The notes beneath the pieces were generated by a model. The model was not told where the DNA came from. It worked only from the letters and a program-made list of their open reading frames with translations, and did not search any database. A stretch of DNA of 30,111 bases. Source: a virus (taxonomy: Duplodnaviria; Caudoviricetes). Each line of letters starts with the position of its first letter. Position 1 is the stretch's first letter. The stretch spans positions 1-30,111 of the IMG/VR virus record IMGVR_UViG_3300026270_000019. One strand, written 5' to 3'. Position numbers and translations under genes: made by a program. Of this stretch, positions 2,297 through 23,324 are shown in pieces.

Positions 2297-2937
2297 AGAT
2301 ATTTCTTGATTCTGCTATTACTACAGATATCCAAGATAGATTAGCAACCGAGATAATAGATGGTGTAACAACCAACCCCACTCTTATAAAAAAGAGTAAT
2401 GAAGACCCTGATGTGGTCTATAAAGAACTGTATGACATGCGTGTTAAAGATCTTTCTATAGAAGTAAAAGGAGAGACTGCACAAGAGTTATCAGCTAATG
2501 GCATACTGTATGGTCGTAAGTACGGAGAAGTAGCAACTATTAAACTACCTTGTACTGTTGAAGGTATAAAAGCTTGTAAGAAACTGTCAATACTGGGTTA
2601 TAAAACTAATATGACTTTAGTATTTAGTGTTAGCCAAGCAATACTGTGTGCAAAGGCTGGTGCTACTTATGTTTCTCCTTTTGTGGGGAGATTGGACCAG
2701 ATTGGAGAGGATGGGATACAACTTATTCAAGATATTGCCAGAGTTTTCTGTGTGCATGATATTAAGACACAGATCTTGGCTGCTTCAATCCGTTCTCCTA
2801 AGCAAGCAGAGGATGCTTACCTAGCTGGAGCACATATATGTACTTTGCCAGTCAAAGTCTTCGATAAAATGTTCCGTCATACACTTACAGATGATGGTCT
2901 TAAGCAATTTGCCATAGATTTTGGCATAAATTTCTGA
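2293..2937 (+). CDS. talC: Transaldolase (TalC/MipB family), auxiliary metabolic gene
   Basis: MKIFLDSA, GVTTNPTL, IKLPCT (Schiff-base Lys), YVSPFVGRLD, ILAASIR. Confidence 0.96.
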   Translation: MKIFLDSAITTDIQDRLATEIIDGVTTNPTLIKKSNEDPDVVYKELYDMRVKDLSIEVKGETAQELSANGILYGRKYGEVATIKLPCTVEGIKACKKLSILGYKTNMTLVFSVSQAILCAKAGATYVSPFVGRLDQIGEDGIQLIQDIARVFCVHDIKTQILAASIRSPKQAEDAYLAGAHICTLPVKVFDKMFRHTLTDDGLKQFAIDFGINF

Positions 2938-3054
2938 GATGGAATAGCGCATCGGCACGGGCGAAAATTACCCCCAAGGGGGGTAGCAAAATCGTCCGGC
3001 GGATCTATGATCCGGTGAACTCCCAGTCATAGCAAGGGATTTGCTGGGCAATAC

Positions 3055-3145
3055 ACGCGCGATCAATTAACGCGCCCGCCCGCGGGAACAATTAACGCGC
3101 ACAGGCACGCGATCAATCAACGCACGCAGCCGTACGCCCGCGCGG
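3055..3145. repeat. CG-rich short direct repeats in the putative genome-end region
   Basis: CGCGATCAATTAACGCGC (3058-3075), CAATTAACGCGC (3089-3100), CGCGATCAATCAACGCAC (3108-3125). Confidence 0.7.
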
Positions 3146-3278
3146 TTTACTTGTCTCTCGATCTCTCGCGATCTGTTGCCGACCAGATTGACCAAACGAA
3201 TTTATCCAGTGATACCAACCGATCTGATGGGGCTTGTGACAGTTTGTTGACTGGTTTGGCTGACTAACCGATACACCG

Positions 3279-3287
3279 TGGTATAAT
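3279..3287 (+). promoter_or_regulatory. Host sigma70 extended -10 early promoter
   Basis: TG-G-TATAAT, a perfect extended -10, upstream of the early region; predicted start ~3294. Confidence 0.7.
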
Positions 3288-3293
3288 GACAAC

Positions 3294-3716
3294 AGAGAGT
3301 GTTGTTTAACGTTATGTTATTTATCTCTCCCTTTAGGGTGAGAGAGATAACTAACTTAACTACAACACCTCTCCCTCGACGAATCGACGAAATTTCATAA
3401 CAAACAACAATCCAGAGCAGCCACACAACCGTAAAGGTTGTTGAGTCCAGTGCCCCTTCAGGACAAGAAGTTGACCGGCCTTGATAAGCGGAGCGTAGAG
3501 CTCCAAGTCCGCAGAGAAAGCGGTGACGGCGACCACGAAAGTGGGATTTGGGTAAAGACACCGGCGAGAACTTCCGCCACGTCGTTTATACAAGTGCTAA
3601 CTTATACACCTTGGTATCTTTGATACCAGATAGCGAGTTAGTCCTTGCGAGGTGGTGTCCCTACAGCCACGCAAGAACGGTGCAACTCCGTTGCTATCAC
3701 TTGGCTTTCGAGCCAA
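3294..3716 (+). ncRNA. Candidate structured non-coding RNA or long early leader
   Basis: No credible ORF; 79-nt hairpin (3295-3373), many GC-rich stems, tRNA-like module (3629-3699), TTCG hairpin (3701-3716). Confidence 0.5.
3629..3699 (+). ncRNA. tRNA-like element 1 (acceptor stem + T-arm)
   Basis: GATAGC/GCTATC stem stacked on AACGG-TGCAACT-CCGTT; internal CTTGCG/CGCAAG stem. Confidence 0.55.
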
Positions 3717-3742
3717 ATTGTTAATTTATTCGGAGAATTATT

Positions 3743-4066
3743 ATGTTTGGTTACACAATTGTAAACCGTAGGTTTAGCGATGCCATCGAGTTCGCTGCTG
3801 TCAACGTCCTTCAAGGACGCTGCATTGTCAGATTCAAAGAATCTGGTGCTGAGTATCTTTACAAGAACGTCAGCCGTCGCAGACTTTTAAGTCTGTTACT
3901 TGATAACAACAAAAGCCTTGGCTTTTGGATTCAGTACTTGGCTAAGAATGCTATTCAAGAGAATAGATATCGTCCAGCTACTGGAGCTATGACTTATAAC
4001 CGTATAGGTTATAGCTACTTCAATGAGATACCACAGTATCTCGCTGTTCAAAACGTGGCTGGCTAG
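3743..4066 (+). CDS. Hypothetical early protein
   Basis: 107 aa, GGAG SD at ~3732, first ORF after the structured leader. Confidence 0.8.
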   Translation: MFGYTIVNRRFSDAIEFAAVNVLQGRCIVRFKESGAEYLYKNVSRRRLLSLLLDNNKSLGFWIQYLAKNAIQENRYRPATGAMTYNRIGYSYFNEIPQYLAVQNVAG

Positions 4067-4068
4067 TC

Positions 4069-4755
4069 ATGACTAGAGTTCACATTACTAGGCGATCTTC
4101 CAACTCTAAAGTTGGCAAGATCCCAGTCACAACCAGCGAAGCTGGCACATGTCCAACAACTTGCGGCATGTATGACACTTGCTACGCAAAGACTGGACCC
4201 CAGTCATGGCACTGGAACAAGGTCACCAAAGGTGAACGCGGCGGTAGTTGGGATGACTTAGCCAAGTTTGTTTCACAATTAAATGCTGGTCAATTATGGC
4301 GGCACAATGTTTCCGGGGACATCCCGTATGTCACCGCACCAGATGGGCAAGAGCTCATCAACTTAGCATTACTTAAACAATTAGTTGATGCTAATAAATC
4401 CAGTGGTGCCAAGGGATATACATATTCCCATCATAAACTTAATACCCATAATCTGGAAGCTTTAAGGTATGCTAACAAGAACGGATTTACAATCAATGCT
4501 TCATGCGAATCACTCGCGCAAGCTGATGATGCAATACGGCAGGGACTACCAGCAGTATGTGTTGTTAATTCCGACAAGGTCACACCAACACACACGCCCG
4601 ACGGTCACAAAGTAACAATATGTCCGGCACAATTACATGAACATGTACAATGTGCAAACTGCAAACTATGTAGTCATAGCAACCGATCTAACGTGGTCGC
4701 TTTCTTATCACATGGCAACAGATCACGTAAGGCAAATGAGTTTTTAACTGATTAA
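4069..4755 (+). CDS. Cys-rich putative Fe-S or metal-binding phage protein (Gp88/radical-SAM-like fold suspected)
   Basis: CPTTCGMYDTC (Cx3Cx5C), WRHNVSGD, C-terminal CPAQ...CANCKLC. Confidence 0.7.
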   Translation: MTRVHITRRSSNSKVGKIPVTTSEAGTCPTTCGMYDTCYAKTGPQSWHWNKVTKGERGGSWDDLAKFVSQLNAGQLWRHNVSGDIPYVTAPDGQELINLALLKQLVDANKSSGAKGYTYSHHKLNTHNLEALRYANKNGFTINASCESLAQADDAIRQGLPAVCVVNSDKVTPTHTPDGHKVTICPAQLHEHVQCANCKLCSHSNRSNVVAFLSHGNRSRKANEFLTD

Positions 4756-4813
4756 CTTATGCACTTTAGTATAACATTAGGGGTATAATATATATCCCTA
4801 ATTTATATTTTTC

Positions 4814-4900: not shown

Positions 4901-4975
4901 CAAGGACGCAGATCATGGACGCAGGGACGCAAGGTCTCAAGGCTCAGGGTCTCAAGGTCTCATGGACACAGGGCT
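4901..4975. repeat. Degenerate tandem 8-mer array CA(A/G/T)GG(A/T)C(G/T/A)
   Basis: caaggacg, catggacg, cagggacg, caaggtct, caaggct, cagggtct, caaggtct, catggaca. Confidence 0.75.
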
Positions 4976-5022
4976 GCTGCTGACTCCGAACAGCAGGGAC
5001 GGTTCAACTCCGTCTATGTCCA
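4964..5022 (+). ncRNA. tRNA-like element 2 (acceptor stem + T-arm, no D-arm)
   Basis: GGACACA/TATGTCC (one mismatch), CTGCTG/CAGCAG stem, GACGG-TTCAACT-CCGTC. Confidence 0.55.
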
Positions 5023-8120: not shown

Positions 8121-8139
8121 AAATTCGCTGAAAAGCCTT

Positions 8140-8178
8140 GGGAGTGTGGCGGAATTGGTAGACGCGCCGGACTTAAAA
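8140..8178 (+). mobile_element. attP: attP core: 5' half of tRNA-Leu(TAA)
   Basis: GGGAGTGTGGCGGAATTGGTAGACGCGCCGGACTTAAAA = 5' acceptor strand, D-arm, 5' anticodon stem and TAA loop; tRNA similarity ends after the loop; directly downstream of int. Confidence 0.88.
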
Positions 8179-8306
8179 ACCGCATAACTTAAAATTCATA
8201 ATGGTATTCGATCTTGGCAGAAATGCTGAGATCTTTTTATTTGCAACGGTGTTTAATCTATACACCTTCGCATAAATCCGTACAAAATATCCATAGAACA
8301 AAATAC

Positions 8307-13136: not shown

Positions 13137-13239
13137 GTTGGATGAATTAAAAAAACCAAACCCACCTACAAAAGAAGCAAAAAAGAAAGCAAAGTTTAAA
13201 GATAAAACATATGTCAGACAAACAAATGCTGGTATTTGA
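13093..13239 (+). CDS. Small basic hypothetical protein (48 aa)
   Basis: MKLRTQFSIPTQTSELDELKKPNPPTKEAKKKAKFKDKTYVRQTNAGI bridges helicase and polymerase genes. Confidence 0.45.
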   Translation: MKLRTQFSIPTQTSELDELKKPNPPTKEAKKKAKFKDKTYVRQTNAGI

Positions 13240-13744
13240 TTGCGAAACTAACGGATTATTACATGACGTTTCTGAGATACATTGCATCGCCATCTACGAC
13301 TCCCAGAAAGAGGAGACGTTCATATTTAACAATCAAGGTAACGACTGCTACCCGATCACGGAAGCTTTGCATTGGCTCACCCATGCTGATGTCATCGTTG
13401 GTCATAATATTGTTGGCTACGATATACCTGTTCTTCGGAAAACTTATTCTTGGTTTGAGCCTTGTAATAATGTTGTCGATACTCTTGTCTTATCTAGGTT
13501 ATATCATCCAAACTTGATGGAGATAGATAAAAAAAGAAACATAGAAAGGATGCCTTTACAACTGTATGGCAGACATTCTTTAGAAGCATATGGATATCGC
13601 CTTGGTGAATATAAAGGTGAGTTTGGCAAAACAAGTGACTGGAAAGAATGGTCACAAGAAATGCAAGATTATTGCGTACAAGATGTACAAGTAACAACTA
13701 AATTATGCGAACACTTCCGCCCCTTGATGACTCGTGTAAATTAG
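13211..13744 (+). CDS. DNA polymerase A 3'-5' exonuclease domain (N-terminal part of a split gp5)
   Basis: ExoI FDCET, ExoII GHNIVGYD, ExoIII YCVQDV. Confidence 0.92.
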   Translation: MSDKQMLVFDCETNGLLHDVSEIHCIAIYDSQKEETFIFNNQGNDCYPITEALHWLTHADVIVGHNIVGYDIPVLRKTYSWFEPCNNVVDTLVLSRLYHPNLMEIDKKRNIERMPLQLYGRHSLEAYGYRLGEYKGEFGKTSDWKEWSQEMQDYCVQDVQVTTKLCEHFRPLMTRVN

Positions 13745-14976
13745 AGCATCAAGTCGCCCAGATATTAACTGAACAAGAAATACATGGATGGCAATTTAAT
13801 GAACAAAAAGCTCTCGAACTTGAGTCATCTCTCAGAAGCGAGATGGAAGAAACTCAAGCAATACTTCGAGGACAATTCCCTTACGTTGCAGGATCGTTGT
13901 TCACTCCTAAACGAGATAACGCAACACAAGGATACAGAGAAGGATGTGAAATACAACGAATAAAGGAGTTTAACCCAACATCACGAGACCACATAGCATG
14001 GATTCTGACGACTCATTTCAAAGTCAAATTGAGCAAGACCACCACGACTGGGAAACCAATTATAGACGAGATTACATTGATGGAGATAGATATTCCCTTC
14101 TCCAAACTATGTGCGAAATGTTTGACGATAAAGAAGAAGCTTGGAATGATATCCGAAGGCGTGAACGCATGGAACAGGCTTGTTACGAGTGAAGGTCGAA
14201 TACACCATCACTGCTCGGTTAGTACGAACACATTTAGATGTGCTCATCGTAAACCAAACCTAGCGCAAGTTCCTGCGGATAAAGAATTTAGAGAACTATT
14301 TACTGCTAGTCCGGGAAAAATAATGGTAGGTGCTGACTTATCTGGAATAGAGCTACGAATGTTAGCTCATTATTTAGGACGGTATGACGGAGGTCGATAC
14401 GCAGACATACTACTGAACGATGATATACATCAAGTTAATGCAGACAAAATAGGAATCACCCGCAGACAAGTTAAGACTGTCACTTATGCATTTCTCTATG
14501 GCGCGGGTAACGAAAAATTAGGACTAAGTTATGATAACTCTTTACAACCCACGAAAGCCCGTAAAAAGGGACAAGAGATTAGAGAAGCTTACGTCGCTGC
14601 TATCGAAGGACTCTCCGACTTACTTGGAGCGGTTGCAGATAAGGCTACTAAGGGTTACCTCGTGGCATGTGACGGACGACGAGTGCTGGTCGATAGCAAA
14701 CACAAAGCATTAAATTATCTTCTCCAATGTAGTGCAGGAATAATAGCTAAAAGATGGATGGTTATTGCCAACGAATTAATAACAAAAAAATATACCCACA
14801 CTCATCAACTAGCGTTTGTTCATGACGAATTGCAGTACGAGTGTTTAGAAAAAAATATAGATGAAATCAAGTTCGCCCTTGAATACTCAGCAATTAGAGC
14901 TGGAGAATATTATAAATTACGTATCCCCATCGCAGCAGAATCAAAATCAGGAAATAACTGGTCAGAAGTGCACTAG
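13705..14976 (+). CDS. DNA polymerase A polymerase domain (C-terminal part of a split gp5)
   Basis: DLSGIELR (motif A), RRQVKTVTYAFLYG (motif B), FVHDE (motif C). Confidence 0.95.
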   Translation: MRTLPPLDDSCKLEHQVAQILTEQEIHGWQFNEQKALELESSLRSEMEETQAILRGQFPYVAGSLFTPKRDNATQGYREGCEIQRIKEFNPTSRDHIAWILTTHFKVKLSKTTTTGKPIIDEITLMEIDIPFSKLCAKCLTIKKKLGMISEGVNAWNRLVTSEGRIHHHCSVSTNTFRCAHRKPNLAQVPADKEFRELFTASPGKIMVGADLSGIELRMLAHYLGRYDGGRYADILLNDDIHQVNADKIGITRRQVKTVTYAFLYGAGNEKLGLSYDNSLQPTKARKKGQEIREAYVAAIEGLSDLLGAVADKATKGYLVACDGRRVLVDSKHKALNYLLQCSAGIIAKRWMVIANELITKKYTHTHQLAFVHDELQYECLEKNIDEIKFALEYSAIRAGEYYKLRIPIAAESKSGNNWSEVH

Positions 14977-23164: not shown

Positions 23165-23170
23165 CCACGT

Positions 23171-23222
23171 CCGTTCATCCCTTCGGGGACGCATGACTCC
23201 TAAGCATGGAACGGGGCTTAGG
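23171..23222 (+). promoter_or_regulatory. Downstream-peptide (glutamine-II) riboswitch
   Basis: CCGTTC/GAACGG stem, TCCC-TTCG-GGGA, CATG/CATG stem, pseudoknot CCTAAG/CTTAGG; followed by a YRG peptide. Confidence 0.82.
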
Positions 23223-23238
23223 TATATGGAGATGACAC

Positions 23239-23292
23239 ATGAAAGTTACTTTCGTATATCGTGGCGTTGCTTACACAAGAGTAGTCAAGTAG
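23239..23292 (+). CDS. DUF4278-like YRG peptide MKVTFVYRGVAYTRVVK
   Basis: GGAG SD at 23228-23231; YRGVAY motif typical of peptides after downstream-peptide RNAs. Confidence 0.78.
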   Translation: MKVTFVYRGVAYTRVVK

Positions 23293-23324
23293 ACCTTTGG
23301 GGAGGTGCGAATCCTCCCTACTCA
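23279..23324 (+). ncRNA. tRNA-like element 3 (acceptor stem + T-arm)
   Basis: GAGTAG/CTACTC stacked on GGAGG-TGCGAAT-CCTCC. Confidence 0.55.

Follow-up and report, generated by a model that had tools for sequence, protein, structure and literature searches.

Immediately behind the first early promoter of a cyanopodovirus genome, positions 3412-3590 almost certainly form a real structured RNA, composed of a four-way junction domain and a 3′ domain (Table 1). The window (the whole stretch of DNA analysed, 30,111 bases) belongs to a P-SSP2-like, T7-like cyanopodovirus, with P-SSP2 and P-SSP3 as its nearest cultured relatives, and its gene order runs from terminase and transaldolase (ending at 2937) through the genome end to small early genes, the integrase and the RNA polymerase. 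In T7-like phages the left genome end enters the cell first, so an earlier sequence-only reading had correctly placed this RNA in the first-injected DNA. Elsewhere in the window, the DNA polymerase (13211-14976) consists of two overlapping ORFs, a split also reported in P-SSP7 (PMC3350473), and the 5′ portion of a tRNA-Leu-like sequence, judged by eye to be a likely attP, is found 3′ of the integrase (8138-8185).

Table 1. Features of the early region of the window, in order of position.
Feature	Position	Strand	Basis
First early promoter, host sigma-70 type, extended -10 (TATAAT 3282-3287)	3264-3287	+	consensus scan, 10/12 with TG
Long 5′ hairpin	3294-3373	+	z -6.5, 0/200 shuffles
A/C-rich linker, differing between phages	3374-3411	+	alignment
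Conserved structured RNA: four-way junction domain and 3′ domain	3412-3590	+	comparative analysis; covariance model R1
Domain A, closed by P1 (3412-3416/3547-3551)	3412-3551	+	P1 99% paired, 3/5 pairs double-changed
P2 arm: P2a 3425-3441 (GUAAA loop) and P2b 3445-3464	3418-3473	+	pairs 3426-3440, 3429-3437, 3446-3463
Hairpin ACAACC-GTAAA-GGTTGT	3425-3441		sequence check
P3 (3475-3479 with 3488-3489 and 3527-3529), loop L3 3480-3487	3475-3529	+	alignment, parse
Hairpin GGAGC-GTAGA-GCTCC	3490-3504		sequence check
Hairpin CCGC-AGAGAAA-GCGG	3509-3523		sequence check
P4 hairpin, CC...GG base, variable tip	3533-3544	+	alignment, parse
Hairpin CCAC-GAAA-GTGG	3533-3544		sequence check
Domain B: YRAA, P5 3557-3559/3581-3583, P6 3563-3566/3575-3578, L6, tail	3552-3590	+	tree null
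Second early promoter copy 3597-3620 (-10 TATCTT) and hairpin 3612-3628	3597-3628	+	19/24 identical to first copy
Hairpin TGGTATC-TTT-GATACCA	3612-3628		sequence check
tRNA-like minihelix: acceptor-like stem and T-arm, 11 bp in total, loop UGCAACU	3629-3699	+	z -2.8, 0/200 shuffles
Short hairpin immediately 3′ of the minihelix; may shield the following mRNA at its 5′ end	3701-3716	+	fold
First gene, KTSC-like	3743-4066	+	Pfam of homologues, Foldseek
Second tRNA-like minihelix, 3′ of gene 2	4963-5022	+	finder, folding

Comparative evidence for a structured RNA

The sequence-only reading had described a GC-rich, multi-stem ncRNA at 3410-3628, with no convincing ORF and no known Rfam family, bracketed by a long hairpin upstream and a tRNA-like element downstream. 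Its five hairpins are present in their places, the flanks are as it described them, and the GC content of the noted stretch is 52% against 39% for the whole window. Folded alone, the sequence barely beats its shuffles (z -1.85; 13/200 equally good), and the support for the RNA is therefore comparative. Homologues gathered via gene 1, and by DNA-pattern searches of viral and metagenome contigs, were parsed into 35 distinct RNAs. As this parse demanded P1 and P5 pairing (2 distinct sequences, L015-type and L137, being lost), the pairing test was repeated unfiltered: 34 of the 40 distinct pattern matches lay in a phage leader, with P5, part of which is fixed by the search pattern (its first pair is free and occurs in four forms), fully paired in 34/34 and P1 in 32/34; matches outside the leader context showed the pairing in 0/6. 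When 21 homologues (20 parsed plus L015; large-insertion forms and class III excluded) were aligned with plain MAFFT, 96.9% of 802 cells were paired; none of 500 shuffles reached the observed pairing, and slid partners gave 25-44%. The multi-stem ncRNA, which was to be checked by covariation among homologues, is accordingly supported in both sets (21 and 35 homologues), with double-sided compensatory changes at 25 of 46 pairs in the former and, in the 35-row alignment, which was fitted to the model and hence is biased towards it, six pairs passing a tree-shuffled null of our own (E<0.05), all of them in the model (3426-3440, 3429-3437, 3446-3463, 3557-3583, 3565-3576 and 3566-3575). The frequent G-U pairs assign the RNA to the + strand. 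Across homologues its length ranges from 116 to 207 nt, the peripheral helices being variable and the core invariant, whose ~35 unchanging residues cluster in junctions and loops.

Other elements of the sequence-only reading had to be revised. The junction said to be closed by GACG (3525-3528) and CGTC (3580-3583) is paired in 68% of cells in the 21 homologues, shows no compensatory change and is equalled by 475/500 shuffles; 3581-3583 instead pairs with GAC 3557-3559, and 3527-3529 is part of P3. As for extent, the RNA does lie within 3410-3628, the conserved unit being 3412-3590 and the last hairpin falling outside it; likewise, the two hairpins at 3490-3523 exist but constitute an optional insertion, not part of the core. 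The invariant core is the junction together with L3 and L6, as opposed to the GNRA-like tips, and the reading had contained neither the closing helix P1 nor the conserved loops 3480-3487 and 3567-3574.

A protein-coding gene was considered for this stretch and rejected, in agreement with the earlier impression: the overlapping ORFs tested had no PHROG match, homologue lengths are spread over all three frames (17/6/12 of 35), and no open frame is conserved, that of ORF 3438-3623 being interrupted by stops in 28/35 homologues. In the P-SSP2 record (L001 2711-2968), a predicted protein, probably spurious, is annotated across the RNA. The absence of a known family also held, since Rfam 15 at the gathering threshold yielded for the whole window only a glutamine-II riboswitch at 23169, and at E<=10, for window positions 2900-4100 and 14 loci, only weak unrelated matches, with no ribozyme or riboswitch. 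Likenesses to hammerhead, twister-sister, cobalamin and SRP RNAs were dropped, as they are not conserved and have no Rfam support. Among metatranscriptome contigs from 8 of 24 runs, X4 (202 nt) spans 3408 to about 3609; because X3 (803 nt) reads through the RNA and X8 and X13 cover the presumably untranscribed genome end, X4 shows neither expression nor the ends of the RNA.

Architecture and distribution of the RNA

Domain A is ordered P1-G-P2-A-P3-CGA-P4-GA, with the junction G/A residues invariant in 35/35 homologues. Among them, G3531, A3532, G3545 and A3546 place tandem G-A/A-G pairs beside a CC/GG helix, the sequence hallmark of a k-junction, so the domain is predicted to adopt a kinked, k-junction-like fold. 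Within the variable P2 arm, which is replaced by a single hairpin in the 116-nt form, P2b is a stem-RG-UG-loop-CA-stem module. P3 accommodates the optional two-hairpin insertion (3490-3526; 8/35 parsed homologues), and its loop L3 has the consensus YYUDAUAA, in which U, A, U, A and A are invariant in 35/35. In domain B, an internal loop separates P5 from P6, which carries L6 (3567-3574). Positions 2 and 5 of L6 swap between G-C and C-G in 27/8 homologues, through five changes on the tree and with no other partner, and this covariation falls short of significance under the tree null (E 1.8).

L3 resembles the tRNA-Ile anticodon loop plus one base, its fourth base varying among G, A and U over 45 distinct loops, none of which has C there. 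Exact pieces of E. coli tRNA-Ile(GAU) were found in related leaders, with 17 nt in the hairpin apex of L169/L173 and 14-15 nt in the T-arm of L152/L082 (0/100 shuffles); in the window the likeness is limited to 8 nt, which 22/100 shuffles equal, and the tRNA-Ile compared is that of E. coli, not of the host.

Covariance model R1 matches 25 (E<0.01) of the best 80 of 250 gene-1 loci, a selection biased to close relatives. The RNA is missing from 32 of 72 distinct gene-1 loci, in which the long hairpin abuts gene 1. Cultured P-SSP7, P-SSP2 and P-SSP3 carry it, P-SSP7 and P-SSP3 as a class II variant, and P-GSP1 lacks it, so that its expression, processing and function can now be tested in the laboratory. 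Class II retains P1, P3/L3 and the GA-CC..GG-GA junction and has lost domain B, a kinship based on motif parsing, as model R1 gives no useful score (P-SSP7 has no match); P3/L3 was parsed in 12/15 class II leaders, P-SSP7 included, with P3 expanded in P-SSP3. In class III (6/41), P1 and domain B are retained and L3 is gone. Given class III and the expanded P3 of P-SSP3, L3 is not universal. The loci L169/L170 hold a near-identical copy of the window RNA, whose hairpin, minihelix and following gene differ from those of the window. Wherever it was seen, the RNA stands immediately after the first promoter. In prokaryote genome contigs, the exact domain-B pattern gave 0 matches and the exact class II pattern 3, none with P3, and diverged copies could escape both patterns. 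Other, different folded leaders occupy the same slot in L204 (1085-1245) and, 5′ of gene 1, in L189 and L193, on all of which R1 is silent.

Promoters, hairpins and tRNA-like elements of the early region

The first early promoter is conserved among homologues and, judging from its consensus match, would be active, with a predicted start at ~3294, exactly where the long hairpin begins. The apex of this hairpin recurs in 76 viral loci, those of Roseobacter-type podoviruses among them, and is also found in RNA-less phages; the hairpin is a candidate RNase III site, where cleavage would occur, or a 5′ stabiliser. In the Roseobacter-type loci (L032-L100), the same apex heads the early region with a gene directly after it. 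A second promoter copy, likewise of putative activity, separates the RNA from the gene after it in 26/39 loci and would thereby uncouple the two. The hairpin at 3612-3628 overlaps this copy in the window, ends one base 5′ of the tRNA-like element and could cap the 3′ end of the RNA.

A T-loop element is located within 260 nt 3′ of the RNA in 39/39 loci with enough sequence. In the window, this is the minihelix at 3629-3699, in which ARAGORN found 0 tRNA genes; the D-arm is lacking and only the acceptor and T-arm are present. Its helix of 11 bp compares with the ~12 usual in RNase P substrates and with 11-14 in relatives, and its extra arm holds a second RG-UG-loop-CA module. Its shape makes it a candidate RNase P/RNase Z signal. 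The minihelix finder returned 3 elements in the window, where shuffles gave 0.1 each, and both of those in the early region have a small hairpin directly after them. A terminator-like T-run hairpin (4776-4812) follows gene 2, and the third minihelix (23279-23323) belongs to a stretch immediately 5′ of the major capsid gene (23169-23323), in which the glutamine-II riboswitch (47 bits), a very short ORF and the minihelix succeed one another. Minihelices are found between the early genes of the window, P-SSP2, P-SSP3, P-GSP1, P-SSP7 and S-SBP1. Those noted in L152 (603-647, ~970-1045 and 2550-2605), L151 (~570-635, 930-980 and 1313-1371) and L003 (2921-2965) mostly have a small hairpin after them, and early-region minihelices were present in all cyanopodoviruses examined, whether the RNA is present or not. 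Cyanobacteria possess RNases III, P and Z (PMC10989914), and the minihelices may serve as RNase P/RNase Z punctuation.

The product of gene 1 is probably a KTSC-like protein. Four of its homologues match Pfam KTSC (PF13619) at 15-21.5 bits, under the cut-off of 25, and the window protein has no match; KTSC proteins take the first three places in a Foldseek search with the gene 1 product (prob 0.92-0.97, E 0.08-0.15). The gene occurs also in RNA-less phages, and its P-SSP7 homologue (L152 709-966) is unannotated in the record.

In 24 distinct S-SBP1-type leaders, the long hairpin is immediately followed by the host rRNA boxA of Synechococcus and Prochlorococcus, known from a primer (PMC9769826), and boxA in turn by other folded RNAs. 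The same CGA-CC..GG-GA junction is found in 7/24 of these leaders, L3 in 0/24, and model R1 matched 0/81 sources of boxA-type leaders. By analogy, the RNA would take the place of the cargo in an rRNA-like unit. S-SBP1-type leaders (L151 421-640; L264, L272, L310, L317, L331 and others) consist of hairpin, boxA, folded RNA and T-loop element, and their folded RNAs are of at least two kinds, one with a conserved GGCCGGCC palindrome and one with a CGA-CCGG..CCGG-GA junction. A boxA-type motif was also seen in ~270 viral stretches (L254-L333), often right behind promoter-like sequence.

Possible functions and relation to known systems

The reading we favour, with a probability of about 0.4, is that the early operon is punctuated and the RNA is its first gene, an optional one, whose product is set free as a stable molecule and acts on a host protein in trans via L3. 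Host RNA polymerase would transcribe it from the first early promoter, host RNase III would cut the upstream long hairpin and host RNase P the downstream minihelix; the release of a discrete RNA in this manner is, taken by itself, somewhat probable. The freed RNA would be a compact decoy or scaffold that engages its host protein through L3 at an early stage of infection, and the early region as a whole would be an operon with a minihelix and a protective hairpin between its units. The optional presence of the RNA and its copy in different surroundings in L169/L170 are gene-like behaviour and favour this reading; the anti-defence or host-takeover role proposed earlier, drawn from position, may apply. 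As a counterpoint, the minihelix may serve the 5′ end of gene 1 and not the 3′ end of the RNA, and a transcript begun by the second promoter at ~3628 would need no RNase P cut to form its 5′ end. The location solely behind the first promoter, furthermore, fits a cis element.

Such an element, unlikely but the main rival, would be a nut/put-like elongation or antitermination signal, whose co-transcriptional fold loads Nus factors or a phage protein while transcription helps to draw the left genome end into the cell; on this view, L3 would be a boxA relic and the RG-UG-loop-CA module a boxB analogue. A boxA-like site does occupy the same slot in S-SBP1-type leaders and in T7, where it is found at record position 813, between promoter A3 and gene 0.3; the motif applied to T7 occurs in the rrnA leader of E. 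coli as well. Of the 12 bases of the boxA core, P3/L3 shares 7-10 (10/12 in 10/35), a weak, post hoc likeness, and L3 is enclosed by a covarying stem, its invariant U departing from boxA, whereas a free boxA (<=1 mismatch) is absent from the class I, II, III and RNA-less gene-1 leaders examined. The RG-UG..CA hairpin stands just 5′ of boxA in 4/24 S-SBP1-type leaders and recurs in the minihelix arm of 21/26 loci with the second promoter and 0/13 without it; these last two counts are not independent, as the parts concerned travel as a block. The GUAAA and GUAGA tips resemble boxB pentaloops, but the fold far exceeds a nut site in size, and downstream terminator-like sites are no commoner with the RNA (10/19 loci) than without it (15/23). 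A 5′ stabiliser or nuclease block that shields the early polycistronic mRNA is very improbable: the RNA is compact and would be 5′-terminal after cleavage of the long hairpin, yet the minihelix (39/39) and the second promoter (26/39) intervene before gene 1, and mere blocking does not require invariant loop residues.

It is improbable that the RNA assembles with itself through intermolecular loop docking into dimers or cages, as manA, ROOL and GOLLD do. Its GNRA-like tips are optional and its CC/GG helices invariant, the swap in L6 resembles a self-complementary kissing loop, and there is a precedent in cyanophage manA, described in 10.64898/2026.07.01.735769 as assembling into decamers and a 60-mer. 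Against assembly, the L6 pair fails the tree null, Watson-Crick pairing is mostly missing at the centre of L6, class II has no L6 at all, and long-range loop-loop pairing is absent from the top 45 covarying pairs. Quite improbable, too, is a ribozyme, whether self-cleaving or cutting the adjacent minihelix, or a ligand-binding riboswitch. The invariant residues in junctions and loops, the constant neighbourhood of the tRNA-like element and the occurrence of k-junctions in riboswitches (PMC12306022) would suit it, but the Rfam searches at E<=10 contained no such RNA, no terminator or ribosome-binding site overlaps, and the next gene varies between loci.

A broader, rather doubtful proposal joins several of these ideas: the first transcript would mimic a host stable-RNA operon made of rRNA-spacer parts (boxA, tRNA-Ile pieces, an RNase III stem and RNase P minihelices), thereby delivering an interchangeable RNA-only effector before any protein, and the RNA would be a mimic of the tRNA-Ile anticodon or of boxA, displayed by a kinked scaffold that perhaps dimerises via L6, and would disarm or redirect a host RNA-binding machine.

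No description of the RNA was found in the literature on cyanophage, P-SSP7, phage structured RNAs, k-junctions, KTSC or boxA, whose supplements were partly covered. Four supplementary files of a phage RNA catalogue (PMC10690425) contain none of the terms sought, an anonymous listing in the alignments of that catalogue being possible, and a term search of PMC7885011 and PMC12695635 gave nothing relevant. In 5/5 records, the manA model (RF01745, 55.2 bits) had no candidate at E<=10; when compared by eye with the first 10 rows of the published manA alignment, which have other conserved motifs, and with the figure text, the RNA showed short word overlaps only and not the manA core motifs or 3′ hairpin. 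Like manA and wcaG, as described in PMC2864571, the RNA is nevertheless a multi-helix cyanophage orphan of ~200 nt with variable peripheral helices; manA has been reported from T4-like phages, whereas the present RNA comes from the left end of T7-like phages.

With rRNA boxB-boxA, lambda nut and HK022 put, the RNA shares a position just behind the first host promoter, but it has no free boxA, its boxA-like bases are closed in a hairpin, its fold is much larger and it shows no association with terminators. P1 C4 and P4 CI are small phage RNAs freed from a precursor by RNase P; here, in contrast, the tRNA-like part is separate and downstream, and no antisense target was seen. The tandem GA/GA beside a CC/GG helix in a junction is shared with k-junctions of the TPP riboswitch type, except that here the junction is four-way, the kink is predicted from sequence and Rfam gives no TPP match. 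GOLLD and ROOL, as well as T4 species I and II, are associated with tRNAs, and the present RNA resembles them as a function-orphan, stable phage RNA near tRNA-type processing signals; it is far shorter than GOLLD and ROOL, matches no Rfam family and is followed by a minihelix, not a tRNA. It is well supported as a new fold among the orphan structured RNAs of phages, with a minimal form of 116 nt, and its surroundings suggest tRNA-like punctuation in a phage early operon.
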